Shown here: positions 1,261 to 19,689 of the stretch, in pieces
Position numbering within the stretch: position 1 is the first letter of the stretch
Layout: every line of letters starts with the position of its first letter
NCBI GenBank assembly: GCA_964493715.1
Contig: CAZBPC010000065.1
Location: 1-19,689 of the forward strand
Source of the DNA: an uncultured archaeon
Lineage (GTDB): Archaea > Asgardarchaeota > Lokiarchaeia > Sigyniarchaeales > SOKP01
Direction: 5' to 3'
DNA length: 19,689 nt
Notes under the pieces: model-generated
Seen by the model: the letters and a program-made list of their open reading frames with translations, nothing else
The model's database searches: none
What the model was told of the DNA's origin: nothing
Program-made: the position numbers and the translations under genes

Positions 1261-1364
1261 TTTTTCTCCTTTATTATTACATGCTTTAAATTAAATTGTT
1301 ATAGCAAGCAAGCATTTTAATTCTTTTAACTATTCTCTATCTAAATTTTTCTTTTGTATTTTTT

Positions 1365-2309: not shown

Positions 2310-2376
2310 GAGTCAAAATGATTATGACATGCATAAAAATAACGTTTTTATGCCTTATGGGTTTTTCTTTAATATA

Positions 2377-3330: not shown

Positions 3331-3417
3331 GTTTTAAATGACTCATTATTATTGAAAATATAGCAATTATTCACTAAATTATTAATCTAATTGAGCAAAA
3401 AGAGGTCTTAAAAAAGA

Positions 3418-4452
3418 ATGTTAAAAACGAATATTACTGAAATGTTTAATATAAAACACCCTATCTTTGCAGCACCAATGGGTCCTTTTTATACGAAGGA
3501 GTTAACTGTTGCGGTCTCTGAAGCAGGTGGTATGGGAGTTATAAGTCATACCAACCTTTTGGGGAAGGAGAGTTTTAAGGTTATGAAAGAGGATATGGAA
3601 TATGTAGTTGAACATACTGACAAACCATTTGGTTTTAATATTAGGACGGGTCGAATGCAATTTGATGCAAAAAAACTTTGTAGACAAATTCCAAAATTCA
3701 TTTTGGAGAATCAGAAAGTAAAGGAACAATGTGTTTATGCTTTAACAAGCGCGGGTTCTTCGAAAATGTTACCATTAAGCAAAAGTTTTCAAGCATTGAA
3801 GGAGAAGAGTGATATAAAACACTTTCATGTTGCTCCAGCAGCTTGGTTAGCTGATAAGTGTGTTGCATCGGGAGTTGATGGCATGGTGGTCACTGGAAGT
3901 GAAGGTGGTGGACATCAATCTTATGAAAAAACAGGCACGTTAGTGTTACTACAACAAGTATTAGAAAAACATCCTGATTTTCCTATCATTGCCTGTGGAG
4001 CTTTTGGAAATGGATATGGCCTAGCAGCAGCATTAGCAATGGGAGCAGGTGCTATTGCAATGGGTTCAAGGTTCATTGCTTCTCAAGAAAGTGAATTTCA
4101 TCAAAAATACAAGGATATTGTTCCCCCTGCAAACCCTCAAGATACTGTTTTGGTTACTGGCTTTTTGGGTCCTATTAGGTTATGGAAAAATGATTATGCT
4201 TTACACCACGGACTCATAGATAGTAAGGAGGAAAAAATGGCTGATGAAGATGGATTTACAATGGAAATGTTACTTGAAGATGGTAAGCATTATGAATCAG
4301 TATATTTAGAGGGGGACCTAAAAACTGGAGCGATACCTTTAGGTCAAAGTTGTGGATTAGTATATAGTTTAGAAAGAGTTCCAGATATAATAGATTCAAT
4401 TGTAAAAATTGCTAAAGAAAGACTTAAAAAAGCTTCTATAATCCTTCAATAA
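3418..4452 (+). CDS. Nitronate monooxygenase / FabK-like FMN-dependent enoyl reductase family protein
   Basis: Motifs LKTxITEMFNIKHPIxxAPMG, AVSEAGGMG, KPFGFN, GSEGGGH, AAALAMGA, MGSRFIASQES and GQSCGL. Confidence 0.88.
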   Translation: MLKTNITEMFNIKHPIFAAPMGPFYTKELTVAVSEAGGMGVISHTNLLGKESFKVMKEDMEYVVEHTDKPFGFNIRTGRMQFDAKKLCRQIPKFILENQKVKEQCVYALTSAGSSKMLPLSKSFQALKEKSDIKHFHVAPAAWLADKCVASGVDGMVVTGSEGGGHQSYEKTGTLVLLQQVLEKHPDFPIIACGAFGNGYGLAAALAMGAGAIAMGSRFIASQESEFHQKYKDIVPPANPQDTVLVTGFLGPIRLWKNDYALHHGLIDSKEEKMADEDGFTMEMLLEDGKHYESVYLEGDLKTGAIPLGQSCGLVYSLERVPDIIDSIVKIAKERLKKASIILQ

Positions 4453-4531
4453 TATTCAAACAAACAAAAAAATTTTTCTGAAAAGAAAGCCCGAGACACA
4501 GGACCCGTGTTCTTTAGGTTCATTAATAACC

Positions 4532-4539
4532 TTTAAATA
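4532..4539 (+). promoter_or_regulatory. Candidate archaeal TATA box upstream of the ABC operon
   Basis: TTTAAATA directly after the inverted repeat AGGTT-N7-AACCT. Other TATA-like words follow at about 4553-4570, so the assignment is ambiguous. Confidence 0.3.
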
Positions 4540-4624
4540 TACTATCAGATAATTAAATATATAAATATATAATATGATATATACAATAAATCAATTCTCT
4601 TTAAAATAAAGATGTAGGATAATT

Positions 4625-5422
4625 ATGACGAATAATGAAATGATTTCAGTTAAAAATTTGAAGAAATTCTTCGGTGAAGTTAAAGCTGTAAATGGTATTT
4701 CTTTTAACGTAAATAAAGGCGAAATTTTTGGATTGTTAGGACCTAATGGTGCAGGTAAAACTACAACCATTAAATTACTTTTAGGTCTTCTTGAATCGGA
4801 TGAAGGTGAATTAGAAGTGCTTGGGATGGATCCTGAAAGGGATGAGATTCAAATTAAAACCCATATTGGTTATGTATCTGAAGAACCACTTATATTTAAG
4901 TCTTTAACTCCTAAGGATTTATTCAATTTTGTAGCATCCATAAGAGGGATGGATCCTGAAGAAGCAACTGAGAGAGCTCAGCAATTTATGGAGATTTTAG
5001 GAGCTTCAGAATATTACAATCAACTTATCGCAACATTATCTCATGGAAACAAACAAAAAATACAGATCATTGCTGCAATATTACACGAACCGGATTTACT
5101 CATTTTAGATGAACCATTGTCAGGTCTAGATGCTAAATCCGTAAAAGTCATGAAAGAAATATTAGATTTACATTTAGAAAAAGGAGGAGCAGTTTTATTT
5201 TCCACGCATATAATGGAAATAGCTGAGGAGTTATGTGATAGAATCGGGATCATTAATAAAGGTAAAATTGTAGGGATCGGAACCATAGAACAATTAAACG
5301 AACAATCCCACAAAATTGGAGCTCGATTGGAAGATGTATTCTTAAGACTAACAGAAGAAGATGCATCAGTAGAAGAAATCGTGAAAAAACTACGAAAATC
5401 CTTCATTAATAAAAATGGATGA
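4625..5422 (+). CDS. ABC-2 type transporter ATP-binding protein (copy 1)
   Basis: Walker A GPNGAGKTT, signature LSHGNKQK, Walker B LILDEP and H-loop STH. Confidence 0.95.
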   Translation: MTNNEMISVKNLKKFFGEVKAVNGISFNVNKGEIFGLLGPNGAGKTTTIKLLLGLLESDEGELEVLGMDPERDEIQIKTHIGYVSEEPLIFKSLTPKDLFNFVASIRGMDPEEATERAQQFMEILGASEYYNQLIATLSHGNKQKIQIIAAILHEPDLLILDEPLSGLDAKSVKVMKEILDLHLEKGGAVLFSTHIMEIAEELCDRIGIINKGKIVGIGTIEQLNEQSHKIGARLEDVFLRLTEEDASVEEIVKKLRKSFINKNG

Positions 5423-5428
5423 GATTAA

Positions 5429-8044
5429 ATGACCGATCAAAAAATTAGTTTATATAAATTAGCGAAGTATACGAATCTTGAGATTGTAATGGAAGCTCAA
5501 GTACAATCTACTGGAGCAAATCAATCCAAATTGATGGAAAGATATAAGAAAAATAAAAAATCAATAAAAAATCAAGCTATTGCATTAAAAGTATCATATG
5601 GATTTCTATTAGCATTAATTACAATTGTACCAATATTTAACTATTTAAACCTTATCGAATTTTTTGGAGGATCTAGTCCTAATCCAAATGCAGGTCTCTT
5701 AGCTGGTAGCTTAATATTATCTGTTTTTTTTGCTATGCAAATAGCATATTTGTTAATTTTAGGAATGATGAATATTTCAGCTTTAATGAATGGTGAAGCA
5801 TTCCGTTGGTTCGAAACTTTACCACTTTCAAAAGACCGTTTAAATAAATTAGGATTTGTGACGGCTTTTCGGAATGTCGATATTGGTTTGATTCTTATAT
5901 CACTTGCATTTCCTATTATAATGGTAATAATTACTCAAAATTTTCTATTATTCTTTGTGAGTCTCTTAGTATCATTAATTAATGCGGTATTAGCATTTAG
6001 CATTTTAGTGATTATATCTCAAAAACTTAGTCGAATATTTCGAATCCAAGAAATAAATACTAAAAGAGCAACAACGATACGACTCATTACAATGCTAGGA
6101 TATTTTATTCTTATCTTTAGCATGTCAATTATTCTAAACGTAGCAATATCGTCAATAGGTACTTTTTACATTATGGCAAATTCAATTGATAATGCAGAAA
6201 CACTAAATATCATTTTATCTTTGATTCCTTTCCCATTATCTCCTAGTTATTTACTAACGATGTGTATAGAGCCTACTAGATTTTCGAACCTTCAATGGAT
6301 AATCACTTTAATGGGAATATTCCTCTATGCAACCTTAACTTGGTTCTTATATCGTCGAGCAGTTAAAGCAATGAGATCTGTCACCTCCTCATCTTCGATA
6401 GAAAAAAAAAGTGGTAGGAAAGTAGAGGAAAAAATTGAAGTGAAAATAGAAAAGAGATCACCTATAATGGCTTACATACGCAAAGACCTATCAATGGCAA
6501 CAAAGGATATTCAAATGCTAATGTTTATTTTTATGCCCATAGTATTACCCTTTATTATGGTTCTAACCATTACGGGAGTAACCTCATCTGAAGGGTTAGT
6601 AGCGATGGCTCAAGATTTCTTGATACTTTGGAGTATAATTGTAATTTATTTCCCAATTATTGCAATCATGCTAGTATCCGGTTTATTGAATGTAGAAGAT
6701 TCTGGAGCATCAATCCTTGCTTCTTTACCGTTAAATCCTCGAGATCAAATGAAAGCTAAGTTAATTTTAATGATTGGTATTCAATTGATCTCGTACTTCT
6801 TGCCGATCTTTTTATTATTAATGAATCCTGCTTTCCTGCCGTTTATTGGATTGTTTATTGCGTGGTATCCTATAGTACTTGTATTTTTAATGGTCATGTT
6901 CCAAATGAAAGTAAGGTTATTCGGAAAGTGTAAGTACAAATATGTTCTCGAAGAAGTAAACATAAATCATAAAGTTTGGAAGTGGGTATTTTTAATATCA
7001 ACCCAGTTCCTAATTTGCATTAGTTTTATTGTTATAGGTTCTATGTTACTTGTCTTATACAACATGGTTGTCATGACTATAACATTATTGATAATGAGCC
7101 TAGCTTCTCTCTCCATTTTATTTGTGACGCTCAAATTAATGTTTCCAAAAGAATTTGGAAAAAGAAAAATGATTGGAATCAGAGCAACTTTTAGAAAACA
7201 TCCACTGTTAGGAACTATTATACTACTGATCACCTATTTTTGCTTTCTCAATATTCCAGATTTAATGTTATCACCATTTATTCTGTTACTTAACATGTTG
7301 CCAATAATAGTTAGTAAATTAATTGGGATGCTTGTAGCACTCGGAATTTTGGGTTTATTGTGGTTTTATATTGTTCCTAAAGGTTTTAGACTTCCAAATG
7401 ATGATGAGAAATTTACAGATTTTGCTAAATCTATACGCCTTACTACTGGAGGACATTTAATTCGAAATATCCTAATTGGGATAGGAGCTTCAATTATATT
7501 TTTCCTGAGTGTGTATATCTTTGGGAATATCTATGGAACTCATAATTGGGATTTAGATGTTCTTTTTGGAGTTCCTTTTGCCCCACCATTATATGGAATT
7601 GGATGGCTCTTATTCATTTACATGCTAATTCCAGGAATATATGAAGAAGTATCATTCAGGGGGGTTATTACATCTCTCAATGAAAAAAAGTATTCTCAAA
7701 AAATAACATTAGTGATCGTTTCAGTTTTATTTGGCCTGTTTCACTTAACCAACATATTATCGGGGATGCCACCAATAGTTGTAATCCCTCAAGCATTTTA
7801 TACAGCTCTTTTAGGATTAGTTTTAGGATACATGGTAATCCGAACCAACAGTATAATCCCAGCAATTTTAACTCATTATTTAATAAACTCAGTAGGAAAG
7901 TTCTTTTACTTTATCAATTATACTGATGATCTATCACGTGTGTGGTTTTTCATTATAGGGATGGGAATTGTACCAGCAATTCTTAGTTTGCTATTTATAC
8001 GGTTTGTAACTCCTTTGAAAAAGCGAGAAATAAATATTATTTAA
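5429..8044 (+). CDS. ABC-2-type permease fused to a C-terminal CPBP (Abi/Rce1-like) intramembrane glutamic endopeptidase (copy 1)
   Basis: The N-terminal ~570 aa contain two permease-like repeats (FETLPLS; YIRKDL...LASLPL). The C-terminus has CPBP motifs EEVSFRG, FGLFH and HYLIN. The gene starts 6 nt after the ATPase stop. Confidence 0.82.
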   Translation: MTDQKISLYKLAKYTNLEIVMEAQVQSTGANQSKLMERYKKNKKSIKNQAIALKVSYGFLLALITIVPIFNYLNLIEFFGGSSPNPNAGLLAGSLILSVFFAMQIAYLLILGMMNISALMNGEAFRWFETLPLSKDRLNKLGFVTAFRNVDIGLILISLAFPIIMVIITQNFLLFFVSLLVSLINAVLAFSILVIISQKLSRIFRIQEINTKRATTIRLITMLGYFILIFSMSIILNVAISSIGTFYIMANSIDNAETLNIILSLIPFPLSPSYLLTMCIEPTRFSNLQWIITLMGIFLYATLTWFLYRRAVKAMRSVTSSSSIEKKSGRKVEEKIEVKIEKRSPIMAYIRKDLSMATKDIQMLMFIFMPIVLPFIMVLTITGVTSSEGLVAMAQDFLILWSIIVIYFPIIAIMLVSGLLNVEDSGASILASLPLNPRDQMKAKLILMIGIQLISYFLPIFLLLMNPAFLPFIGLFIAWYPIVLVFLMVMFQMKVRLFGKCKYKYVLEEVNINHKVWKWVFLISTQFLICISFIVIGSMLLVLYNMVVMTITLLIMSLASLSILFVTLKLMFPKEFGKRKMIGIRATFRKHPLLGTIILLITYFCFLNIPDLMLSPFILLLNMLPIIVSKLIGMLVALGILGLLWFYIVPKGFRLPNDDEKFTDFAKSIRLTTGGHLIRNILIGIGASIIFFLSVYIFGNIYGTHNWDLDVLFGVPFAPPLYGIGWLLFIYMLIPGIYEEVSFRGVITSLNEKKYSQKITLVIVSVLFGLFHLTNILSGMPPIVVIPQAFYTALLGLVLGYMVIRTNSIIPAILTHYLINSVGKFFYFINYTDDLSRVWFFIIGMGIVPAILSLLFIRFVTPLKKREINII

Positions 8045-8060
8045 TTAAATTTTCAACATC

Positions 8061-8069
8061 TTTTTTTTT
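8061..8069 (+). terminator. Oligo-T archaeal terminator candidate
   Basis: T9 run 16 nt after the stop at 8044. Confidence 0.4.
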
Positions 8070-8113
8070 ATCCTTTAATAAAATATATTGATTATTTGAA
8101 AATGTGATTAATA

Positions 8114-8908
8114 TTGTTAGATAATTCCACGATTGAAGTAAACAGCCTTAAAAAGTACTTTGGAGATGTTAAAGCTGTAGATGGGATTAGTTTTGCTGTG
8201 AAAAAAGGGGAGGTCTTCGGACTTTTAGGCCCAAATGGTGCTGGTAAAACTACAACGATAAAACTATTGCTGGGTTTATTAGATCCAAATGAAGGAGAAA
8301 TGAAAGTATTAGGATTAAATCCTAATAAGGATGCTATTGAAATTAAAAGAAGAATTGGTTATGTGTCAGAAGATCCTTTAATTTTTAAATCTCTTACTCC
8401 AAAAGACTTGTTTAACCTAATTGCCTCAATTAGAGGGCTTGATCCAGAGTACGTGTTAGATCGTGCTCAAGTATACTTAGAAAGTGTAGGAGCACTAGAA
8501 TATTTTGAACAACTCATAGCCACATTATCTCATGGGAATAAACAAAAAATACAAGTGATTGCAGCTATTCTCCATGATCCTGAAATTCTCATTCTTGATG
8601 AGCCTCTTTCTGGTCTTGACGCAAAATCGGTAAAGGTTATTAAAGAAATTCTTGATCTACATACAGAAAGAGGTGGTTCGGTTTTATTTTCTACGCATAT
8701 AATGGAAATAGCTGAGGAAATATGTGATAGAATCGGGATCATTAATAAAGGTAAAATGGTAGGAATTGGAACAATTGAGGAGCTCAACACCCAATCAAAC
8801 AAAATTGGTGCTCGATTGGAAGATATCTTCTTAAAATTAACAGAGCAAGATAGTTCAATAGAAGAAATCGTGAAAAAATTACGAAAATCTTTTAAAGAAG
8901 GAATTTAG
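8114..8908 (+). CDS. ABC-2 type transporter ATP-binding protein (copy 2)
   Basis: TTG start. Same motifs as copy 1 (GPNGAGKTT, LSHGNKQK, LILDEP, STH) and colinear with it. Confidence 0.95.
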   Translation: MLDNSTIEVNSLKKYFGDVKAVDGISFAVKKGEVFGLLGPNGAGKTTTIKLLLGLLDPNEGEMKVLGLNPNKDAIEIKRRIGYVSEDPLIFKSLTPKDLFNLIASIRGLDPEYVLDRAQVYLESVGALEYFEQLIATLSHGNKQKIQVIAAILHDPEILILDEPLSGLDAKSVKVIKEILDLHTERGGSVLFSTHIMEIAEEICDRIGIINKGKMVGIGTIEELNTQSNKIGARLEDIFLKLTEQDSSIEEIVKKLRKSFKEGI

Positions 8909-8919
8909 GAGTATAGATA

Positions 8920-11532
8920 ATGGCACCAATTAAACATTTAAGTCTATATAAACTTGCGAAGTACACTAATTTAGAAATTGTTATGGAAGCTCAAGTTCAA
9001 TCATCGGGCGCAAATCAAGCGAAACTCATGGAAAAATATAAGAAGAATAGGAACAGTATCAAAAGTCAAGCTTTTGCAATGAGACTCGTTTATGGGGTAA
9101 TGTTGGCATTTTTAACAGTAATTCCTCTCTTTACAACTATTCGTTTAATAGAGTTTTTTAATAAACTTTTTGTTTCAACTGGTTCTATATTACTAACGGG
9201 TAGCCTTCTTTTCTCCACTTTCTTTGGAATACAGTTAATTTATCTGATGTTATTAGGAATGTTTAGTATTGGGGCGATGATGACTGGTGAAGCTTTTAAG
9301 TTCTTTGAAACTCTCCCGATTTCAAGAGAACAAAGAAGAAAACTCGGTTTTTTTACTGTATTACGAAACTTGGATGTTGGGTTAATAATAATGATGGTCG
9401 GCTTACCAACAATGATGATTATAATGACTCAAAACATTATTTTATCGATTATTAGCATTATAGTTTCAATAGGTGCAACTTTTCTAAGTTTTAGTGTACT
9501 AGTTCTTTTTGCATCTAAATTAAGTCAAATATTCAAGGTTGAAGAAGCAGGATCTAAAAAATCCACCATAATACGAATTATTACCATGCTGAGTTATCTA
9601 CTAATGGCTTTTTCATTGAGTTTTTTTCTGCAATGGGCTATAAATGCAGCTGATGATTTATTTATATTAGTTTCATCATTTGAAAATATAGATTTTTTGA
9701 ATTATATCATCTCAATTATACCATTCCCTTTTGCACCTAGTTATTTAATTACCATGCTTGTTGATCCTGCGCGATTTTTAATACTGCAGTGGATATTCAC
9801 TATTATTGGCAATATATTATTTGGTATTACAACATATTTACTATACAAGAAGGCAATTTCTTCAATGCGAATTGTAACCTCATCAGCAGCTATGGATAGC
9901 AAACAAATACTGAAAAAAAGAGCCTTCAAAAAAGTTACACAAACCGAAATAATCATTCATAAACCTATTATTGCATACTTCCGAAAAGATTTATCGACAG
10001 CTTCAAGAGATTTTCAAACACTCATGTTTGTGATAATGCCATTAATCCTCCCATTTGTATACGTATTTTCATTGTTAGTTAGCACCGGAGGAGATCTTTT
10101 TGTAGTGGGAATTGATATTCTCTGGATGATTTTAATATTTTATCAACCGATCATATCTCTGATGATTACTACTGGTTTTTTAAACTTGGAAGACTCCGGA
10201 GCGTCAATCTTGGCATCATTACCACTTCATCCTCGCGATCAAGCTAAAGCAAAACTCTTGTTACTGATCATCATTCAAACTTTATCATTTTTCTTACCTC
10301 TTTTAATGTATATTGGTTCCTCAAATTTCGTTCATTATTTATTCACATTCCTTGCTTGGTATCCAATCGATTTAATCTTCTTACTTAATGTGTTTTATTT
10401 TAAAATAAGGTTATTTGGACGGATGAAATATAAATTTGTTTTGGAAGAAATCAGAATAGAAAAAAAAATACTTAAGTGGATTGGAATAGGGATCCTCGAA
10501 TTTATAATTTGTTTTGGCTTTATTTTTATAGGGGTTATTCTACAATTAAATTTTGGTACCTCGTTGATGTTATTAATTTTATTATTGGTCGGTGTTCCGA
10601 TCTTAGGATTGTATGTTATTTCATTACAAAGAATATTTCCAAAAGAATTGGGAAAGAGAAAATTTATCAGTATAAGGGAAAATCTCAGAAAAAGACCAAT
10701 TTTAGGGACGATAATAATTTTATTATTATATTTCGGATTTCTGTTCTTACCCGATTTTATAGATATACTTTTCCTCCCTATTTATTTAATTCTTTCAGAC
10801 TTAGGTATTTTATTTATCAAATTTTTTATCGCTTTTGGATGTTTAACATTTTTATGGTTCTTGATAATACCGCGTAGTTTACATTTACCAAACGGAGATC
10901 AGAAATTCAAAGAGTATCTCAATCACATTAAATTAACAAGAGTAAAACCTATACTCAGAAACATTGTTGTAGGGATTGGATGCTCAGTGATATTTTTTGT
11001 TAGTACATTTTTAATAGCAAATTTGCTCGGAACTTTTACGTTTGATCTTAATCTTTTATTTGGAGTTCCAAGTCTTTTAGAAATTGGATGGTTTATTTTT
11101 ATTTTAATGCTTATTCCGGGTATTTGGGAAGAAGTAGCCTTTCGAGGAGTATTATTCCAACTAAATCTGAGAAAATACTCACGCAATGTTACACTGGTTC
11201 TCACTTCATTATTATTTGGTGCAGCTCATTTTCTCAATTTGATCACAGGTCAGCCTCTTAGTTCAACTATTTTGCAAGTGATATTTGCAGCATCATTAGG
11301 ATTTCTTTTTGGATACATGTACATTAAAACTAATAGTTTACTTCCTAGTATCATAACTCATTATTTAATTGACACAGTGGGAGCCTTATTTATGAATGTT
11401 GATTTTCCAGATTTCATAAGTTCAAGTATATTTTTTATCTTTGGAGTTGGATTAATACCAATGGTGTTTGGTCTACTATTTGTCAAATTGGTTATACCAA
11501 AATCGAAAAATGGAGAATTAAAAAGGAATTAA
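8920..11532 (+). CDS. ABC-2-type permease fused to a CPBP protease (copy 2)
   Basis: Colinear paralog of 5429-8044 with a shared SLYKLAKYTNLEIVMEAQVQS N-terminus. CPBP motifs EEVAFRG, FGAAH and HYLID. An AGGAG SD-like word lies just upstream. Confidence 0.82.
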   Translation: MAPIKHLSLYKLAKYTNLEIVMEAQVQSSGANQAKLMEKYKKNRNSIKSQAFAMRLVYGVMLAFLTVIPLFTTIRLIEFFNKLFVSTGSILLTGSLLFSTFFGIQLIYLMLLGMFSIGAMMTGEAFKFFETLPISREQRRKLGFFTVLRNLDVGLIIMMVGLPTMMIIMTQNIILSIISIIVSIGATFLSFSVLVLFASKLSQIFKVEEAGSKKSTIIRIITMLSYLLMAFSLSFFLQWAINAADDLFILVSSFENIDFLNYIISIIPFPFAPSYLITMLVDPARFLILQWIFTIIGNILFGITTYLLYKKAISSMRIVTSSAAMDSKQILKKRAFKKVTQTEIIIHKPIIAYFRKDLSTASRDFQTLMFVIMPLILPFVYVFSLLVSTGGDLFVVGIDILWMILIFYQPIISLMITTGFLNLEDSGASILASLPLHPRDQAKAKLLLLIIIQTLSFFLPLLMYIGSSNFVHYLFTFLAWYPIDLIFLLNVFYFKIRLFGRMKYKFVLEEIRIEKKILKWIGIGILEFIICFGFIFIGVILQLNFGTSLMLLILLLVGVPILGLYVISLQRIFPKELGKRKFISIRENLRKRPILGTIIILLLYFGFLFLPDFIDILFLPIYLILSDLGILFIKFFIAFGCLTFLWFLIIPRSLHLPNGDQKFKEYLNHIKLTRVKPILRNIVVGIGCSVIFFVSTFLIANLLGTFTFDLNLLFGVPSLLEIGWFIFILMLIPGIWEEVAFRGVLFQLNLRKYSRNVTLVLTSLLFGAAHFLNLITGQPLSSTILQVIFAASLGFLFGYMYIKTNSLLPSIITHYLIDTVGALFMNVDFPDFISSSIFFIFGVGLIPMVFGLLFVKLVIPKSKNGELKRN

Positions 11533-11607
11533 TTATTTTATGATCTAATTTTTCTTTATTAAGGTTTAATTTCAATAATAGATCAAACTTGAAAAATTGA
11601 AATTGAA

Positions 11608-12783
11608 ATGACTGAAAAACACTCTATTTGTAAGAATTGTATAATGGTAGAAGGTTTCTTGGGGATCGAGATTGATGATAATCAACTCTGCAATTTCTGT
11701 GCAGATCCTAATCATGTTAATCCTAATTGGTCCAAGAAAATAATTAGTGAGAAACAAAAAAAAGAGGATTTAGAAAATTGGAATAATACTGTACGAGAAA
11801 TGCAAAGATTTCACAATGGAAAGCATTACGATTGCATCATCGGATATTCGGGCGGAAAAGATTCCACCGCACTAGTTGATACATTTATAAACGAGTATCA
11901 TTTAAATCCATTACTGATAACCATTGATACGGGATTTATGACTGAAGTTGCTAAAGAAAATATGAATGAGACTCTCACTAAAATGGAACTATTTGATAAT
12001 CACGTCATAATTGAGGACTCAATTCCTATCTTTACCAAGTTGTATCATTATTTCTTCTTTTCTCATAATTCTCTTGAAAAGAGCTTAACTGTTGATGTTT
12101 GCCATAAGTGTACTGATTTGATTCACACAATCTCTTACAAGGTAGCATTAAGCAGGAATATTCCTTACTTGATAATCGGATTTTCCCCGGACCAGATCGC
12201 TCGCTATTTTTATGAAACGACCACTGAAGATATCATCAAAGATGGAACTCCAATTCCTGCATTACAAACCTTCTTGGGAGAAGACGATCGACAATGGTTT
12301 CTCACCCCGGAAGAGATTGAAAAAATGAATGATTTTTCCCCTAGGGTGCTCTATCCCTATCACGTGATAGATTATGATGAACATGAAATTATAAGCCGTT
12401 TGGAAACGAAAGGACTCATCCAAAGGGGAAAGGGAGATCCCGTTCTTACTAACTGCCACGTGGTAAAGGCAGCGCTCCTTCACGACTTATATCGTTATGG
12501 TGGAATAACCTATGCCTTGCAATACTCAGAATTGGTTCGTCAGGAAGAAGATCCCGAAAAACATCACCAAAGTCGGAAGAGTTGGCTACGCATGTACAAG
12601 CAAATCGGAAAGAGCATTCTCAACGGCACCTTCAACATGGAAGGAATGGAAGCATTTTTTGCGAATTTAGGAATTACAAAAGAAGAATTGATCCAAAGAA
12701 TTGAAGAAAAAAGGCATACTGATCCGAATGAAGATAAAATCCTCCAAAACATCGAACGAATCAAAACTAATAAACTTCGATGA
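11608..12783 (+). CDS. PP-loop (adenine nucleotide alpha-hydrolase) protein, N-acetyl sugar amidotransferase (WbpG/PseA)-like
   Basis: N-terminal CxxC...CxxC, the PP-loop YDCIIGYSGGKDST, an internal CHKC, and a TNC motif. Confidence 0.7.
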   Translation: MTEKHSICKNCIMVEGFLGIEIDDNQLCNFCADPNHVNPNWSKKIISEKQKKEDLENWNNTVREMQRFHNGKHYDCIIGYSGGKDSTALVDTFINEYHLNPLLITIDTGFMTEVAKENMNETLTKMELFDNHVIIEDSIPIFTKLYHYFFFSHNSLEKSLTVDVCHKCTDLIHTISYKVALSRNIPYLIIGFSPDQIARYFYETTTEDIIKDGTPIPALQTFLGEDDRQWFLTPEEIEKMNDFSPRVLYPYHVIDYDEHEIISRLETKGLIQRGKGDPVLTNCHVVKAALLHDLYRYGGITYALQYSELVRQEEDPEKHHQSRKSWLRMYKQIGKSILNGTFNMEGMEAFFANLGITKEELIQRIEEKRHTDPNEDKILQNIERIKTNKLR

Positions 12784-12812
12784 ATGAAAATCTAAGAAAA
12801 GAGAGAATAATT

Positions 12813-14108
12813 TTAATAATTATTTTTAATATAGTTAATTGAATTTATGCATAACTTCAATACTCGTTCTAATACGCCTTTTTCTATTTTATCGAGAGTA
12901 TCCGTAGATTGATGATAAAATTTAAGCATTTGCTTTAAATCCATTGCCACAATTGTAGCTGCTTTTAACCCGGCTTTTGAAAATGTAGTTGCATCCGTTC
13001 CACCTGTAACTTGACCGATTAATTTTTCAACAAAACTACTCCCCCCAAGAGAAAAATTTGATGCAGGCATGCCCAAATCTTTAGCGGATTGGGTTAAAAT
13101 TTTTACTACTTCGTCTGAATGCTTTGTTCTCGTTGTTGGCTCAAAATCAATTATGGCTATGTTTGGAAGACTTTGAATACCATCCATGTTAATACAGATT
13201 GCATTTTTTGTTTTCAATTCTTCTAAATGTTCTTCTACATATCTATAAGAACCTCTTAAACCAGCTTCCTCGCATCCAAAAGAAATCAAGCGTATTTCTG
13301 TGTTTTCAGGAATAATATTTGTATTAAATTTTAAATATTTACCTACTCCGAGCACTATTGCAACAGCACTAAGATTATCAACAGCACCAGGCACTTTATT
13401 TGCTTTTTCACCAAATGAAACGAAAAACCATAAGCCAATTAGTACGGGTATCCCTATAATAAATAAGATTAGAGCGAAAATCTGAAAAACAAGAAAGTCA
13501 GCAATTTTAAAACCAATGATAGATATAATGAATAAAATTGTGGAAATTACCATCCAAATTATTAAAATTAAGAGTCCAAGAAACACAATTATTGCATATC
13601 CTATTTTTAAATGAGTCAATAAATTAAATTGCAAAGCACTATCATGATGTCCCGAAAAAATGAGTATATTTTTCACTTCTTTTTTGCTCTCAAAAACTCC
13701 AATAACATTCTGAGAACTTTTTTTTTTAAAAAATGGATCGATAAATTCCCTATAATTAAAAAATTCATTCCAAATTATTAAAAAAGCTCCTAGATTTAAT
13801 GCAAATGAGATTCCCATAATTATTTGCTCTACTTGGAGAAATAAGTGTAATGTAGTAAGAAAATAACTTAAAAATGAAATGAGAATCATCAAAACCATCA
13901 CTTTTATATATCCAATAAAAGCTCTGGGGTGACATGTAAAGGGTTCTATATGGGAAGAATCACATACCTTTTCAAATTCAACTTTAATCAAATCAGCACT
14001 TTTTGCTTCTTGAGGACTACATGGCATTCTTGGGCCACATTCTTTAATTATTCTTTCAATGAAATTGTACATATAATCCGAATTTTCTTGAGAGAGTTCT
14101 ATTTCCAT
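12813..14108 (-). CDS. Membrane-embedded M28 family zinc peptidase
   Basis: Motifs GPRMPCS, SQNVIG, SGHHDS, PGAVDNLSAV, FGCEEAGLRGS, NMD, GGTDA and YHQSTD, with two pairs of inserted TM helices. Confidence 0.88.
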   Translation of the reverse strand: MEIELSQENSDYMYNFIERIIKECGPRMPCSPQEAKSADLIKVEFEKVCDSSHIEPFTCHPRAFIGYIKVMVLMILISFLSYFLTTLHLFLQVEQIIMGISFALNLGAFLIIWNEFFNYREFIDPFFKKKSSQNVIGVFESKKEVKNILIFSGHHDSALQFNLLTHLKIGYAIIVFLGLLILIIWMVISTILFIISIIGFKIADFLVFQIFALILFIIGIPVLIGLWFFVSFGEKANKVPGAVDNLSAVAIVLGVGKYLKFNTNIIPENTEIRLISFGCEEAGLRGSYRYVEEHLEELKTKNAICINMDGIQSLPNIAIIDFEPTTRTKHSDEVVKILTQSAKDLGMPASNFSLGGSSFVEKLIGQVTGGTDATTFSKAGLKAATIVAMDLKQMLKFYHQSTDTLDKIEKGVLERVLKLCINSINYIKNNY

Positions 14109-14281
14109 CTTAGATCCGAAAATATTATAATTATTATATATTTAGTTTGGCATTTTATAAATGTAGTTTTAATCAGATTCCTGAAATTATATACTAAAAA
14201 TAAAATAGGAATAATTTAAAATAGAAGTTCTTTTATGTGAAGAAACTAGAGAAAAAATTCTTAAAAATTAATGTTTTAATT

Positions 14282-15103
14282 ATGGATTCAAATAGAAATA
14301 TCGAAGTCACGTGTCCAGTTTGTAAGATTATTAAAAAAATTAGCATTCCTCAGAAAATATTTGACCAAAAAAGATTTGGTACAATAAAAGTTCAAGTTCC
14401 TCAAGGAGGTGTTTGCCTAGATCATCAATTCATCGTATTTATAGATATAAAGGGCATCATCAGAGGTTATGAAAAAATAGATCTAGTAATGAAAACTCCA
14501 ACTGAAACAAAAAAGTTTTCTCTCTATGGATTCATTAAAATGTTTGGATTATACGGGTTATTTTCCTTAATTCATGCTAAGATTTTTAATTATCTATCAT
14601 ACGTTATCAAAGATGAGGGTACAGAAGATCAATCAGAAATTATCAATATGCTTGGAGATAGTTTGCTTCCCGAAAAATATCGAGGGATGAACTTTATTAC
14701 ATTTATTGAAGATAGAGATTATAATAAAATAAAGAAAGACAAAAATATTCTCATAATAGATAGTCAAAAGAATATATTACAAACGCCTTGGAAAACAAAA
14801 TTGAAATTCGAAGAAGAAATCATTAAAAATGCACTTAAAATCTCAAATGAAGATGAACAACGTATTTCTATTCAAAATGAAATCGCTAAATTTATAAAAG
14901 AGGCTGAAATCTCGAAAATTATTGCCGAGAAAGAAGTGATCTATGAAACAGAGCTTATAGAAAAACTCTCAAGAGAATTAATGATCCCAAAAGTAAATTA
15001 TTATCGAATTTCACTAATTAAAGAGTTTATAGAAAGAAGAATTTCTGCAAAATTAGCCCAAAGGATTAAAAACAAAGTACATGAATTCCTCAAATCAATA
15101 TAG
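14282..15103 (+). CDS. Hypothetical protein with an N-terminal Zn-ribbon-like domain
   Basis: CPVC...VCLDHQF...IRGYEKID followed by a charged helical region. ATG 14282 is preferred over GTG 14237, whose extension is very AT-rich and promoter-like. Confidence 0.65.
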   Translation: MDSNRNIEVTCPVCKIIKKISIPQKIFDQKRFGTIKVQVPQGGVCLDHQFIVFIDIKGIIRGYEKIDLVMKTPTETKKFSLYGFIKMFGLYGLFSLIHAKIFNYLSYVIKDEGTEDQSEIINMLGDSLLPEKYRGMNFITFIEDRDYNKIKKDKNILIIDSQKNILQTPWKTKLKFEEEIIKNALKISNEDEQRISIQNEIAKFIKEAEISKIIAEKEVIYETELIEKLSRELMIPKVNYYRISLIKEFIERRISAKLAQRIKNKVHEFLKSI

Positions 15104-15205
15104 ATTAATCAAATACTATTTTTTTCAAAAAAAGTAAAATAAGACCAATTCTTTTTTAACTAAAATCAAATAAATTTGAATTACTAATCTAAAAGTGAAA
15201 TTTTT

Positions 15206-16053
15206 ATGCCCGATTGGGGAATGCAAAATCGTTTATCAAGAATTATTAAACCAAAATCTGGACATTGTGTAATGCTAGCGGTGGATCATGGTTATTTTGG
15301 GAATGTCCCGGGACAACTTAAATGTTTTGGAGATCTTAATCCTCTTTTTGAACATGCCGATGCATTGATGCTCACTCGAGGAATGTTAAGGAGTTGCGTT
15401 TCTCCCGATAGTGATATTCCCATAGTTTTAAGAGTATCAGCAGGAGCAAGCATGCTTAAAGAACTTTCGAACGAAGAAATAAATGTAACCATCGAAGATT
15501 GTATAAGATTAAATGTTTCTGCAATTACTTGCTCAATTTTCGTAGGGAGTGAGTTTGAAAAGCAGAGTTTATTGAATTTATCCAAACTTGTGAATTGGGG
15601 TCAAGAATATGGAATTCCATCTTTAGCAGTGACCGCCGTTGGTAGAGAAATGGTTCGAGATTATCGATATTTAGGAATGGCGAGTCGAATGGCAGCAGAA
15701 ATGGGTGCTTCTTTTGTTAAGACTTACTATTGTGAAGATTTTGAAAATGTTACGAGTATTTGCCCCGTTCCAATTGTCATAGCAGGCGGAAATATAGATT
15801 TGAAAGCCAAATTTATTCCGAAAAAGATTCCCGAAAGGGATGCCCTGCAGATGGCAAGGAATGCAATTGATAAGGGAGCTGTCGGTGTAGATTACGATTA
15901 TTTTTCATAATCGCAAGCAAAAACATGGGAAGAAATATCTTCCAATCAGACAGCCCAATTGGAATGATCAAAGCTGTTAGGGCAATCGTTCATGAGAATG
16001 CAACGGTTAATGACGCATTTGAGATATACCAGAATGGTCCAAAAGGTTTATAA
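15206..16053 (+). CDS. lsrF: LsrF-like 3-hydroxy-5-phosphonooxypentane-2,4-dione thiolase (DhnA-type class I aldolase fold). Predicted spliced CDS join(15206..15792,15823..15890,15923..16053), 261 aa
   Basis: LsrF-like motifs [38 protein letters not shown], catalytic KTYY and [10 protein letters not shown]. The missing C-terminus ([42 protein letters not shown]) lies in another frame at 15925-16053. Confidence 0.88.
15793..15822 (+). other. Putative BHB-type (HBh') mRNA intron 1, 30 nt, in frame
   Basis: Central helix CGGA(15787-90)/TCCG(15817-20), bulge AA^T, 9-bp intron stem ATAGATTTG/CAAATTTAT with one G-U, and 3' site AA^A. Ligation gives GGC GGA AAA AAG ATT CCC (GGKKIP). Confidence 0.8.
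15891..15922 (+). other. Putative relaxed BHB-type mRNA intron 2, 32 nt, frameshifting and containing a stop codon
   Basis: Central helix GTGT(15885-88)/GCAA(15917-20) with 3 of 4 pairs, bulge AG^A, intron stem TTaCGATTAT/ATAATCGcAA, and 3' site AA^A. Ligation gives GTA GAC ATG GGA AGA (VDMGR). Confidence 0.75.
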
Positions 16054-16057
16054 CAAA

Positions 16058-16068
16058 TTTTTTTTTTT
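16058..16068 (+). terminator. Oligo-T terminator candidate for lsrF
   Basis: T11 run 4 nt after TAA 16053, which supports this stop as the real gene end. Confidence 0.55.
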
Positions 16069-16282
16069 ATTCTTATTCTATTGATTCGTTTTACGTTTTC
16101 TTACTAGACCCTTTAAAAAACTACTCTTCATAAAAATAAAGGTTTTTTCATCTAAAAGTAATGAATATTGGGGAGAAGAAATTATAATTTCAAGCAAGAA
16201 TTACTAAAATATGTATATTCGTACTAGTGCTTTATTCACTGAAGCAACACCAGTCTTATTTCCAATACAAATAATAACAAAA

Positions 16283-16873
16283 TTATAAAGATAGCGATGG
16301 TTTTTCCAATATGATCACTTCTTCGTTTCTACTTATTTTTTCAATGGTTTGGACATCCAAATTCTTTTTTATTTTACTTCTCAAATTGTAAGATCCTCCC
16401 GCTTCCCCAGCTTCGAATTGGAAAACCTCATTATCTCTGGTAAAAATAATAAATATAACTTTAACTATTGTTTTCAACCTATAGATTACCTTAATTTTCG
16501 TGATATTCTCTATTTTATTTTGCTCGATAACATAGTTTGGTTCATTGTTTTTATCTTGAATGATTTTGATTATACCGATTCTCTTATTTGAAACGAACTT
16601 GAGTAAATCATTTCGCCTTACTCTTGAATATTCTCTTAGATCAACGATAAGCAAAGCTAACATTATAATTTGAGTAATAAAACCAACGATTGACATAAAG
16701 TAAAGATGGGGATCCACCATAACAAAAAAGACCACAAATAAAATAAAAATAAATATCACAATCCCTTCTATTATATGATGAGATCTATACTTTGCCTCCT
16801 GTAGTTTCCAAAATATTGTTTCATCGTTTTCGATGATTTGATTCAATATTTTTTTATAATTCTTGCTTTTCAA
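16283..16873 (-). CDS. Small 2-TM membrane protein with a probable bacterial-PH-like C-terminal domain
   Basis: ENDETIFWK, two TM helices, then FVSNKRI and a beta-rich region. The TTG start overlaps the upstream stop (TTGA). Confidence 0.6.
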   Translation of the reverse strand: MKSKNYKKILNQIIENDETIFWKLQEAKYRSHHIIEGIVIFIFILFVVFFVMVDPHLYFMSIVGFITQIIMLALLIVDLREYSRVRRNDLLKFVSNKRIGIIKIIQDKNNEPNYVIEQNKIENITKIKVIYRLKTIVKVIFIIFTRDNEVFQFEAGEAGGSYNLRSKIKKNLDVQTIEKISRNEEVIILEKPSLSL

Positions 16874-17511
16874 TTTTTACTCCTCACATTATGATTTTTA
16901 GATAAAAATTTTCTATACGTTATCTCAATATGATTTTGCCTAAGCATCTTAAAGAGATCCTCATGATCAGAAATATGGCATAATTGAAAACTGTTGATCG
17001 CTAGGTCGAGACGCCGAAGAACTTTAATATCTGATTTCTTGAAATAATGACCTGTCCAATCCAAGTGTCCCACACGTTTAAAATCTGGAATAATTTCAAC
17101 ATTTACATTTTTTTTAAAAGACAACAATACTGGTCGAACGTCAACATATTTAATATCAGTATAATTCAATGAATAATATTCATTATATTCGTTCCCATCT
17201 ATTTTTTTAATTATTTTTTCATTGGTCACAAGATAGGAGGTGTGAGATTGCTCGAATAAGTTAGATAACGCTAAGAATATTCCAGACCCGGATACGCCCG
17301 GAAAAATGATAAAAATTAAGTCCAAGGTAATCGCAAGAAGAAATCCGATGTATGTATTAGGAATTGGTAAATATTGAAAGATTAATACATCTATAATAAC
17401 ACCAAAAATTAAGATGATTAATGATATAAAGAAGAGGAATTTTTGTGGCTGTAAACTTATGCTGGATTGCCAAAGAATTTCTTCATCCTTTTCTAATATT
17501 TCTGCAAACAT
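16870..17511 (-). CDS. Small 2-TM membrane protein with a probable bacterial-PH-like (bPH_2/YdbS-like) domain
   Basis: LEKDEEILWQS, two TM helices, then YLVTNEKII...LNYTDIKYVDV. Confidence 0.65.
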   Translation of the reverse strand: MFAEILEKDEEILWQSSISLQPQKFLFFISLIILIFGVIIDVLIFQYLPIPNTYIGFLLAITLDLIFIIFPGVSGSGIFLALSNLFEQSHTSYLVTNEKIIKKIDGNEYNEYYSLNYTDIKYVDVRPVLLSFKKNVNVEIIPDFKRVGHLDWTGHYFKKSDIKVLRRLDLAINSFQLCHISDHEDLFKMLRQNHIEITYRKFLSKNHNVRSKN

Positions 17512-17544
17512 AATTTTCGTTAAGTCAAAAGGATTGTCAATTTT

Positions 17545-17892
17545 GTACCTCGCTAATAGAATATATTAAATTAATACTTAAAAGAATGTCGCTCCAATTG
17601 CAAAAATTAATGAGATTAAACTAATTGATTCTATTCATAATTTTGCCCATTATTTAATAGGGATAAACATTATAATTAAAATTAAAAATATTTTGGATAT
17701 TTCATTACTGAAAGATAGACAAATTAATATGAATTCTTAAAAATCATTACTAATATAGGAGTTTTAATAATAATTAATCCAAGATCTACCCTAATTTTTA
17801 TAGTAGATTATGGATTACCCTTCTATGAGTAATTAGTTTTACTTAAATTCCTCTTCTACTTTTCTCGTCCAGTCTTTGTTGGTCATTTTCAT
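17545..17892 (-). pseudogene. Possible decayed small membrane-protein gene
   Basis: A gene-sized gap. The minus frame from ATG 17892 reads MKMTNKDWTRKVEEEFK* and later gives hydrophobic stretches (ISKIFLILIIMFIPIK*, SISLISLIFAIGATFF*) broken by many stops. Confidence 0.3.
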
Positions 17893-17966
17893 CTTAATAT
17901 ACCGATAAGCATAATTTAATATTATCATTGTAACTATGCAAAATATTACTATTCCATAAATCAGAT

Positions 17967-18512
17967 CTAATTGACTCGTTGAAAAATTACCTCATTTTTG
18001 TTTGTTATTAAGTTGAAACCCAGTAATCCTTTCAAGACTTTGATCAGCGATAGATATTCTTTAACACCTTCAAATTTAATGATTTCGCTTGTTTTATCAT
18101 GAAATCGAAATTCGAATCCATAAATCGTTCTCCTTATAACGACTTTTTGAATGGCTTTTACTTCGATTTTTTTAATTATTGAATCTTCAGTGTTATTTGG
18201 AACACTGCTTTTTATAAGTGTATTAGAATTATTATGGATGCTTATCATTACATTATTTAAAGATACAAAATACCTCCATTTAAACTTGTCTTTCAACAAA
18301 ATCCTATAGAGAAAATAATGCACAATCAATAGAAATAATATATTGAAAACATAAATCACGACAATAAATAGAGAAGCTCCAGGAACAAGTATCGATTTCC
18401 CAAAAACACTATTAAATCCAATTATAAGCAATGTAGCAATTAAGAATAAGGAAATACTGTCTATAATTGGTGCATGGTTCTTACCTTTCCATAATACATT
18501 ATCAAATTTCAT
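17967..18512 (-). CDS. Small 2-TM membrane protein, same architecture as its two downstream neighbours
   Basis: DNVLWKGK, two TM helices, then RYFVSLNNV and a beta-rich tail (IQKVVI...IKFEGVKE). Confidence 0.6.
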   Translation of the reverse strand: MKFDNVLWKGKNHAPIIDSISLFLIATLLIIGFNSVFGKSILVPGASLFIVVIYVFNILFLLIVHYFLYRILLKDKFKWRYFVSLNNVMISIHNNSNTLIKSSVPNNTEDSIIKKIEVKAIQKVVIRRTIYGFEFRFHDKTSEIIKFEGVKEYLSLIKVLKGLLGFNLITNKNEVIFQRVN

Positions 18513-18571
18513 AATTCGATTCTTCCCACTTTTTATAATTAATTGTTAAAAAAAAATAAATATTTAGGTAT

Positions 18572-19689
18572 TTAAAATATTTTTATTTGTCCAGTAACCA
18601 AATATTGTATATATGTTATCAATGTGAAAATACCAAATGCAAAGCACATCCCACTATAAGCATATAATATATATTTTATTATAGAAGGAGTTTTAGTTTT
18701 TCCACCTGTATTTTCAACTTGGGGTTTTCCATAAAGGAAATATGTCATTAGTACTACTATAGGCATCATCGCTCCAATAAGAATATCTATTGTAGTAGCA
18801 ATTTTTTTAATAACTTCATCAGATACCCATACAGAAATTATGGCAAGTATGATACAAAGAATTACTTCAAATATCACCAATAATGGTATTTTACTCAAAC
18901 CTATTTTGATTTGAGTGAATTTAAATGCCCCCTTTGTTGCAGCGAGTGAAAATAATAATCCAGATAGGCATAATATGATACCAAGCGCCAAATAAGCTGA
19001 AGAAGGATCTGAGAATTTCGCAAATAAATAATTGAAGTCTTTTGCTCCACCGTTGATTAAAGGAATTAAGGTACTAATAGCATTAATACTAAATGCAGCA
19101 CCTGATGCAATACCAGCAATCACTAAAAGGAAAGCAATCCAAGCTTTTGAACTATCTGTTCTAAATATATATCCCGAGGCACTGAGTAAAACTGCTGGTA
19201 TACCAGTGATGAAAAGATACGACATATAACCCATTGTTTCAAAACTTTCTGTATCAAAAGTATGCTGAGTTGAATTAGAACCAAACCCATTGATTAAATC
19301 TTGTTCTATCTCTGCATCATCCTCTTCAGATCCTAGAAGAATTGGGGATTCCTTTCTCTGAATCAATGTGTTATTTAATAATATTGTATCTTCTACATAT
19401 GGTAAGGTTAAATCAAAATAACTTTCGTATTTCCAGATAATCTTATTTTCCATTTTAAGTGAATGAGTAAAAAAGTTAGCATCGATGAAGAATAATCCAG
19501 AATTCAGAGTGCCTCCAAGGCATAAGGTTAATATCAAAAAGAAAGGGATCATCGTTAAGAAAGAAACCGTAATTGATACAATAGCTAATGCGAGTAATAC
19601 ATATGTTAAAACTAGAATCGCAGCGCGAACTAAAAGCCATGCTAAGTGTGCTAGCCACGAGAGTATTGTCATTCCTATTGATTGAGCAT
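18572..19689 (-). CDS. C-terminal part of a larger multi-pass hydrophobic hypothetical protein; 5'-truncated by the window edge
   Basis: The frame is open to the edge (…AQSIGMTILSWL). It encodes a long hydrophobic stretch, an acidic linker (SEEDDAEIEQD) and about six Gly/Ala-rich hydrophobic helices. Confidence 0.65.
   Translation of the reverse strand, partial: AQSIGMTILSWLAHLAWLLVRAAILVLTYVLLALAIVSITVSFLTMIPFFLILTLCLGGTLNSGLFFIDANFFTHSLKMENKIIWKYESYFDLTLPYVEDTILLNNTLIQRKESPILLGSEEDDAEIEQDLINGFGSNSTQHTFDTESFETMGYMSYLFITGIPAVLLSASGYIFRTDSSKAWIAFLLVIAGIASGAAFSINAISTLIPLINGGAKDFNYLFAKFSDPSSAYLALGIILCLSGLLFSLAATKGAFKFTQIKIGLSKIPLLVIFEVILCIILAIISVWVSDEVIKKIATTIDILIGAMMPIVVLMTYFLYGKPQVENTGGKTKTPSIIKYILYAYSGMCFAFGIFTLITYIQYLVTGQIKIF

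Follow-up and report, generated by a model that had tools for sequence, protein, structure and literature searches.

Here, we describe a protein-coding gene of an uncultured Asgard archaeon that appears to be interrupted by two tRNA-type introns. The gene, lsrF, lies at positions 15206 to 16053 on the forward strand of a window of 19,689 nucleotides (nt), by which we mean the whole stretch of DNA analyzed (contig CAZBPC010000065.1, positions 1 to 19,689, of assembly GCA_964493715.1). We consider it likely, with a probability of roughly 87%, that this lsrF is an intact gene expressed by splicing of two relaxed bulge-helix-bulge (BHB) introns of the HBh' type, with the tRNA splicing endonuclease EndA and the RNA ligase RtcB as the predicted enzymes. 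We infer cleavage by EndA and ligation by RtcB from the geometry of the inserts, their covariation, the selection acting on the gene, and the presence of both enzyme genes in the genome. Subtraction of 62 nt of inserts from the 848 nt of the locus leaves 786 nt.

Read literally, the locus consists of two out-of-frame open reading frames (ORFs), at 15206 to 15910 (234 amino acids) and at 15925 to 16053 (42 amino acids). The first matches the NCBIfam model NF006081 (LsrF thiolase) from profile position 33 to 252 (E value, 6e-92; 308 bits, cutoff 297), and the second, which represents the last exon, matches the same model from 252 to 288 (E value, 6e-13; 48.8 bits). Since these spans are adjacent, the two ORFs are colinear and no piece of the gene has been lost. 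In an end-to-end alignment of the first ORF with Escherichia coli LsrF (PDB 3gkf; E value, 1e-70), we observe a single gap of 10 residues, located exactly at insert 1 and directly after the IAGG motif. NF006081 is a curated equivalog model, and the match above its cutoff places the product among the LsrF/DhnA-type class I aldolases (3-hydroxy-5-phosphonooxypentane-2,4-dione thiolase). The window gene is thus an LsrF-type class I aldolase/thiolase with predicted enzymatic activity. No other lsr genes are found beside it within the window, and given this lack of lsr neighbors, its role here may be other than the breakdown of autoinducer-2.

Both inserts fold into the same predicted architecture (Table 1). 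In each, 5' exon bases and bases at the 3' end of the intron form a 4-bp helix H, which is imperfect in intron 2 of the window; a 3-nt bulge holding the 5' cut separates H from the intron helix h', and h' comprises 9 and 10 bp, respectively, where 2 bp or more define the HBh' type. The predicted folds correspond in their geometry to the introns of archaeal pre-tRNAs. As a measure of chance, 19,773 of 7,356,460 genome positions (0.27%) carry a loosely defined motif of this kind. Cuts placed after the second base of each 3-nt element remove exactly 30 and 32 nt and yield the sequence of the intronless orthologs, with a coding sequence (CDS) of 786 nt and predicted junctions AGG-KK (site 1) and GVD-MGR (site 2). 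Of all registers obtained by shifting the two cuts jointly by -8 to +8 nt, only the one that conforms to the rule shows the motif.

An earlier note, made from the letters of this stretch, had proposed much of this picture, and every element of it that is open to sequence analysis holds. Colinearity with LsrF except for two short insertions agrees with the profile coordinates and the single gap against the E. coli protein; the insert lengths and the 68-nt exon between them are reproduced in DNA alignments with intronless orthologs; the restoration of conserved motifs and of a 786-nt CDS is borne out by a product equal to the ortholog sequence at both sites; and the CDS does end just before a run of eleven T (stop codon at 16051 to 16053, run at 16058 to 16068), likely an archaeal terminator signal. 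The described succession of helix, bulge, stem-loop, helix partner, and AAA applies to both inserts as HBh' motifs, but the helix of intron 2 has three of four pairs and is not perfect. Likewise, the note placed the intron 2 cut one base further to the right than the rule does, but this leads to the same product, since there is an A on both sides.

The genome is a MAG (metagenome-assembled genome) of the Asgard phylum Promethearchaeota, assembled into 160 contigs and with completeness scored at 100%. Orthologs were collected by a protein search of the genomes of 41 relatives (26 with the gene), from all 41 genomes of the genus (38 with the gene), and by a contig scan that contributed 80 further lsrF loci; most of the latter derive from Promethearchaeota or "Promethearchaeia archaeon" entries, in keeping with the Asgard host that had been suspected. 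Of 113 loci (L003 to L115), 104 were full length at >60% identity and gave 75 distinct sequences, while nine partial or distant ones were dropped. No insert is present in 64 of the 75 distinct orthologs, and the CDS measures 786 nt in most orthologs measured in same-genus DNA alignments. Against these same-genus genes, the window inserts stand out as precise insertions of 30 and 32 nt, 68 nt apart, and the proposed alignment with relatives thus supports the splice sites.

Site 1 is empty in 73 of the 75 distinct orthologs. In its sole other carrier, locus L082, the insert measures 36 nt and includes an in-frame TAA, and helix H shows compensatory changes (AGGU/GCCU, compared with CGGA/UCCG in the window). 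Site 2 is empty in 67 sequences and occupied in eight including the window, and the seven others carry homologous inserts of 30 or 32 nt with similar ends and differing stems; helix H is paired at four of four positions in these seven copies versus three of four in the window. In addition, a third site in lsrF (site A, after DHG) holds a 30-nt insert in five sequences, with H being CAUG/CAUG or CGUG, and is empty in the window. The lsrF of L082 has introns at all three sites.

Covariation was assessed for the site 2 inserts, represented by eight copies of which seven are distinct. Standard pairs fill 91.7% of the alignment cells, versus 28.7 to 40.8% when the 3' partner is slid by one to three columns. 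Seven of 14 pairs show changes on both sides, and none of 500 shuffles reaches the observed values. In helix 1, 96.4% of cells are paired and one pair occurs as three Watson-Crick types; in h', 6 of 10 pairs changed on both sides. Within helix H (columns 3 and 36), an exon base at the third position of a glycine codon changes in concert with its partner in the intron, the pair being C-G three times, A-U twice, and U-A twice. This evidence carries particular weight for intron 2: its own folding energy is not significant, and the case for it therefore rests on covariation.

For intron 1, an alternative is that the 30-nt insert is translated as a 10-residue loop after IAGG, or that both forms of the protein are made, since the insert is in frame, contains no stop codon, and is read through by the 234-amino-acid ORF. 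We regard this as unlikely. Intron 1 has the best motif of all, with four of four Watson-Crick pairs in H and a folding energy that only 1 of 200 shuffles equals (z = -3.04); the L082 insert at the same site contains a stop codon and compensatory changes in H, and the near absence of inserts from this site among the orthologs also speaks against a translated loop.

A second alternative is that lsrF is a decaying pseudogene broken by small palindromic insertions. Taken literally, the reading frame stops at 15910, which is also where annotation pipelines would end the gene, and the three closest relatives lack these introns. However, the ratio of nonsynonymous to synonymous substitution rates (dN/dS) in exon 3 is 0.04 to 0.26 in 13 of 15 pairs among six intron 2 carriers, with dS saturated in the other two pairs, and in the spliced frame none of the eight site 2 carriers shows an indel or stop in exon 3. 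The exon is under purifying selection, and neutral decay, which had been raised earlier as a concern, is excluded. A pseudogene would also leave unexplained the compensatory changes in the insert structure and the occurrence of the same insert class in three further genes (the sole rtcB, nadE, and leuS) although the genome is scored as complete. Decay of the gene therefore appears very improbable. The other concern, that of an assembly artefact, is excluded by the recurrence of the inserts in independent MAGs. The assembly is fragmented and has another frame break, located in a run of seven T, but homologous inserts occupy the same sites in several independent assemblies, and they are structured sequences of 30 and 32 nt rather than homopolymer slips; we assign next to no probability to an assembly or sequencing error.

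These mini-introns are gained or lost quickly between species. In a gene tree of the 75 sequences with the intron columns removed, intron presence changes at least six times at site 2 and twice each at sites A and 1, and the window lsrF is sister to three intronless genes with 100% support. The pattern reflects either an old intron that was precisely lost many times or its spread between alleles, the tree being blind to gain versus loss.

The lsrF introns belong to a genome-wide population of 29- to 32-nt mini-introns that is also found in other protein genes and resembles the tRNA introns of the same genome. In total, we count at least nine such introns in seven genes, 29 to 32 nt in length, as a lower bound and not a census. 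Beyond lsrF, these are at least seven introns in six genes: leuS, nadE, two thiolase genes, an elongation factor 2 (EF-2) paralog with two, and rtcB. The earlier note had pointed to other frameshifted genes as something to look for. It understated the finding, as the same introns occur in at least six further genes. A genome scan for the motif combined with ORFs has a high background and served solely as a source of candidates. Of 11 candidates, five were verified with family profiles, in each of which the profile coordinates on the two sides of a 30-nt insert are adjacent and the insert contains an in-frame stop (Table 1; for the archaeal EF-2 paralog, 24 to 60 and 61 to 720). The 31-nt insert of the EF-2 paralog was found without use of the motif and lies inside the G1 GTP-binding motif (AHID-HGKTT). 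A second, uninterrupted EF-2 gene is present (C1:99085-101256) and other class I synthetase genes match the leuS model weakly, and for this reason we make no claim of essentiality for all of the interrupted genes. The cbf5 gene of this genome is uninterrupted.

The rtcB insert, just before the DINCG motif, was likewise located without use of the motif. This sequence has a role in metal binding by RtcB. The insert has a helix H of UUGG/CCAA, an AUA bulge, an 8-bp stem, and a 6-nt loop, and the RtcB profile continues across it (1 to 47 and 48 to 426). It escaped the scan filter, as the frame used downstream of it happens to be open on the upstream side as well. The insert is shared by this genome and one other (G001), whereas the two closest intronless relatives examined lack it; an unbroken profile match from 1 to 426 is found in 34 of the 41 genomes of the genus. 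Across all insert sites that were found independently of the motif, namely, lsrF site A, site 1 of L082, rtcB, and the 5' insert of EF-2, four of four fit the HBh' build, and the rtcB and EF-2 inserts conform exactly to the cut rule.

Introns of the same build are present in tRNA genes of this genome. Introns of 29 to 30 nt with the same helix, 3-nt bulge, and hairpin as the protein gene inserts interrupt tRNA-Thr(UGU) (C4:59401-59501) and tRNA-Gly(GCC) (C24:22458-22559), the former reading CAGC-AGA-hairpin-GCUG-AAA. Among the 27 tRNA genes called in the genome, a number from which several are probably missing, 12 have introns.

The host has the machinery that such introns would need. Two EndA paralogs (C5:37733-38356 and C58:18440-19057) and one rtcB are encoded in the genome. 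Catalysis by EndA relies on a Tyr/His/Lys triad, and in the C58 paralog the catalytic His position is replaced. The C5 paralog, which is of the catalytic type, is closest to chain 3p1z_B of Aeropyrum pernix EndA (E value, 1e-36), the chain with the specificity loop, and aligns without gaps over K44-P45-R46 of this Crenarchaea-specific loop, with K-P-R kept. The loop has been tied to broad substrate specificity (PMC3241643). Asgard EndA has been described as an (alpha-beta)2 enzyme with an L1 loop, and according to the same source only such types cleave noncanonical motifs (PMC5829648). By sequence, the two paralogs found here fit this (alpha-beta)2 type, and the genome thus combines an EndA type for relaxed motifs with an RtcB gene that is itself interrupted.

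On this reading, helix H would form between four exon bases just upstream of the 5' splice site and the four bases that end the structured part of the intron, leaving a 3-nt bulge between H and the 9- to 10-bp intron hairpin h' and three unpaired bases 3' of H. Within each 3-nt element, the two-subunit EndA of the host would cut behind the second base, after which RtcB would join the exons of lsrF into the 786-nt frame, from which a full-length LsrF-type class I aldolase/thiolase could be translated.

Several observations weigh against splicing of this kind. Neither intron shows pairing beyond H, and the outer exon-exon helix h of the canonical hBHBh' motif is absent; the motif is therefore assigned to the relaxed HBh' type rather than to the canonical BHB, and the 3' cut site falls outside any true bulge. 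The folding energy of intron 2 is not better than that of shuffled sequences (z = -0.64; 45 of 200 as good), and its central helix contains a G.A mismatch in this genome, while the sequence of intron 1 alone does not demand removal. At the genome level, the scan returned 276 interrupting hits under the correct cut rule versus 245 to 300 under 14 wrong rules, meaning no enrichment; its ORF test cannot resolve the cut register, and six of the 11 candidates remained unverified or were rejected. The only rtcB of the genome is itself interrupted, which would make the proposed ligase dependent on its own product. Finally, in a search of RNA runs, five runs contained 0.04 to 0.08 of the sampled words, and four runs gave eight contigs that are each 90 to 99% alike and were taken to be those of relatives, so that splicing in this genome has no RNA support from them. 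In one of these RNA contigs (approximately 92% identity), 76 letters stand in place of 138 nt of the window, as would also be expected for an intronless relative; it belongs to another species and hence says nothing on splicing in this genome.

Some of these points would also suit removal or skipping of the inserts by a route other than EndA and RtcB, either through another hairpin nuclease and a ligase or through ribosome hopping (translational bypass). With the outer helix missing, what is conserved is mainly a hairpin flanked by a short helix, and hairpin-triggered excision followed by RTCB ligation is known from animals (PMC12779559). Nevertheless, the constant combination of a 4-bp helix, a 3-nt bulge, and a cut after the second base is EndA geometry and is common to the tRNA introns of the same genome, and a plain hairpin signal would need no covariation between exon and intron in helix H. 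Bypassing in gene 60 of phage T4 requires matched codons, but GAU before intron 2 has no matching landing codon, the codon before AUG being AAC. We consider such other routes quite improbable and EndA/RtcB splicing the better explanation of both introns.

The genome scan also left candidates that we do not count. A KorB-like gene (C53:2033-2062, minus strand) and a VWA/CoxE-like gene (C28:34412-34441) each have a 30-nt insert with a good motif; exon 1 of the former and exon 2 of the latter lack a family match, and both are unverified, plausible introns. Candidates on contigs C49, C84, and C123 are adjacent genes by appearance or have no evidence in their favor. In a major facilitator superfamily (MFS) transporter on C2 (approximately 89120 to 89130; locus L133, approximately 620 to 630), the frame breaks in a run of seven T, either a homopolymer error or a true frameshift, and no intron is involved. 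Scan hits were in excess at lengths divisible by three, with no convincing cases accounting for the excess, and a codon usage score gave no separation of real from false hits.

Table 1. Positions of lsrF exons, introns, and intron elements in the window, and of related inserts in other lsrF loci and in other genes of the same genome (C, contig; L, locus)
Feature	Position	Strand	Description
lsrF exon 1	15206..15792	+	587 nt; ATG at 15206; ends on 2nd base of a Lys codon; boundary by ortholog alignments
lsrF intron 1	15793..15822	+	30 nt; in frame, no stop; adds 10 residues if translated
lsrF exon 2	15823..15890	+	68 nt; by ortholog alignments
lsrF intron 2	15891..15922	+	32 nt; frameshift that puts TAA into the exon 1/2 frame; equivalent placement 15892-15923
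lsrF exon 3	15923..16053	+	131 nt including TAA 16051-16053; codes for conserved MGRNIFQ region
T11 run	16058..16068	+	after the stop codon; read directly from the sequence
HBh' motif, intron 1	15787..15823	+	minimum free energy fold gives exactly this structure; also in structural scan
Intron 1 H(a)	15787-15790	+	CGGA
Intron 1 bulge	15791-15793	+	AAU
Intron 1 stem	15794-15802 with 15808-15816	+	9 bp
Intron 1 loop	15803-15807	+	5 nt
Intron 1 H(b)	15817-15820	+	UCCG; 4/4 pairs with CGGA
Intron 1 3-nt element	15821-15823	+	AAA
HBh' motif, intron 2	15885..15923	+	fold, structural scan, register test
Intron 2 H(a)	15885-15888	+	GUGU
Intron 2 bulge	15889-15891	+	AGA
Intron 2 stem	15892-15901 with 15907-15916	+	10 bp; one A.C mismatch
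Intron 2 loop	15902-15906	+	5 nt
Intron 2 H(b)	15917-15920	+	GCAA; 3/4 pairs with GUGU; G.A at outer position
Intron 2 3-nt element	15921-15923	+	AAA
lsrF site A inserts in L082, L085, L086, L089, L093	1576-1612		30-nt insert
Bacterial-type leuS insert	C44:26027-26056		30 nt; profile 1-76 / 77-172
nadE insert	C39:8748-8777		30 nt; profile 5-155 / 156-260
Thiolase insert	C28:23007-23036		30 nt; profile 215-299 / 301-398
Thiolase-domain gene insert	C145:299-328	minus	30 nt; profile 1-54 / 57-148
EF-2 paralog, two inserts	C76:5334-5364 and 5211-5240	minus	31 nt and 30 nt; locus L130; within first 61 codons
rtcB insert	C2:12136-12164	minus	29 nt; locus L131; just before DINCG motif; found without motif use

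Elsewhere in the window, we observe a tandem duplicate (4625 to 8044 and 8114 to 11532), each copy comprising an ABC ATPase gene followed by the gene for an 870-amino-acid membrane protein with an Rce1-like CAAX protease domain. ORFs without a Pfam family are located at 14237 to 15103, 11608 to 12783, 16283 to 16873 (minus strand), and 18572 to 19672 (minus strand).

The intron of cbf5, reportedly first described in 2002, is a close known counterpart. In Desulfurococcales and Sulfolobales of the Crenarchaeota, this relaxed BHB intron is cut by a hetero-oligomeric (alpha-beta)2 EndA and the exons are then ligated, and its gain and loss between related species is documented (PMC2738675, PMC10485636). 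Both cbf5 and, as predicted, the present lsrF are protein genes with relaxed BHB introns in hosts with the (alpha-beta)2 type of EndA. The cbf5 case consists of one intron in one RNA modification gene of thermophilic Thermoproteota, whereas lsrF is a metabolic gene of an Asgard archaeon; it carries two introns, its ortholog in a relative carries three, and six other genes of the same genome account for at least seven more. The class of mechanism is the same as for cbf5. New are the lineage, the presence of more than one intron within a gene, the uniformity of the mini-introns over many genes, their fast turnover, and the interruption of the ligase gene. In Haloferax volcanii, the HVO_1309 mRNA is cut by EndA at a BHB motif and its spliced form is reported to be the main product (PMC10485636, PMC7714728). 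Like lsrF, for which cutting is only predicted, it is an archaeal mRNA with an EndA-type motif, but it stands alone: its enzyme is a homodimer of the alpha2 type, its motif is canonical, and it does not belong to a family of uniform 29- to 32-nt HBh' inserts. In a 2023 review, cbf5 and HVO_1309 are the only two archaeal mRNAs listed as substrates of splicing by the tRNA endonuclease, with more expected to exist (PMC10485636).

Noncanonical tRNA introns of Asgard archaea and Thermoproteales have been reported with an HBh'-type motif and repeated gains (bioRxiv 10.64898/2026.10.13.758758). As far as that preprint was accessible, they share motif, size range, machinery, and repeated gains with the lsrF inserts and differ in being located in tRNA genes; in the same accessible part, the term "mRNA" was not found, and protein genes serve only as neighbors for locus matching. 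In our literature searches, which did not reach most subscription journals, we came across no description of BHB introns in protein genes of Asgard archaea. Among eukaryotes, HAC1/XBP1 splicing is comparable in that a short mRNA intron is removed by an endonuclease and a tRNA ligase (RTCB in animals) with a change of frame, and differs in that the nuclease is Ire1 rather than the tRNA endonuclease, the motif consists of two stem-loops, and splicing is a regulated stress switch in one mRNA.

Taken from its sequence, this Asgard archaeon probably splices several mRNAs with its tRNA-splicing enzymes. A broader reading, which we offer tentatively and hold at a little under an even chance, is that in this genus the uniform HBh' mini-introns of approximately 30 nt are a mobile, genome-wide class that enters protein genes as readily as tRNA genes, with mRNA splicing by the tRNA machinery as a routine layer of gene expression. 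The intron in the sole rtcB would then mean that the ligase can be made only by cells already holding ligase, and it raises the testable question of self-dependent expression. If RNA confirms the predicted splicing, gene callers would be misannotating such genes in Asgard MAGs as truncated or as pseudogenes, and the rapid gain and loss of introns at the same sites would offer a natural system for the spread of BHB introns. In the closest lineage to eukaryotes, both interrupted protein genes and protein-based mRNA splicing would then be common, with a bearing on the origin of intron-tolerant gene expression.

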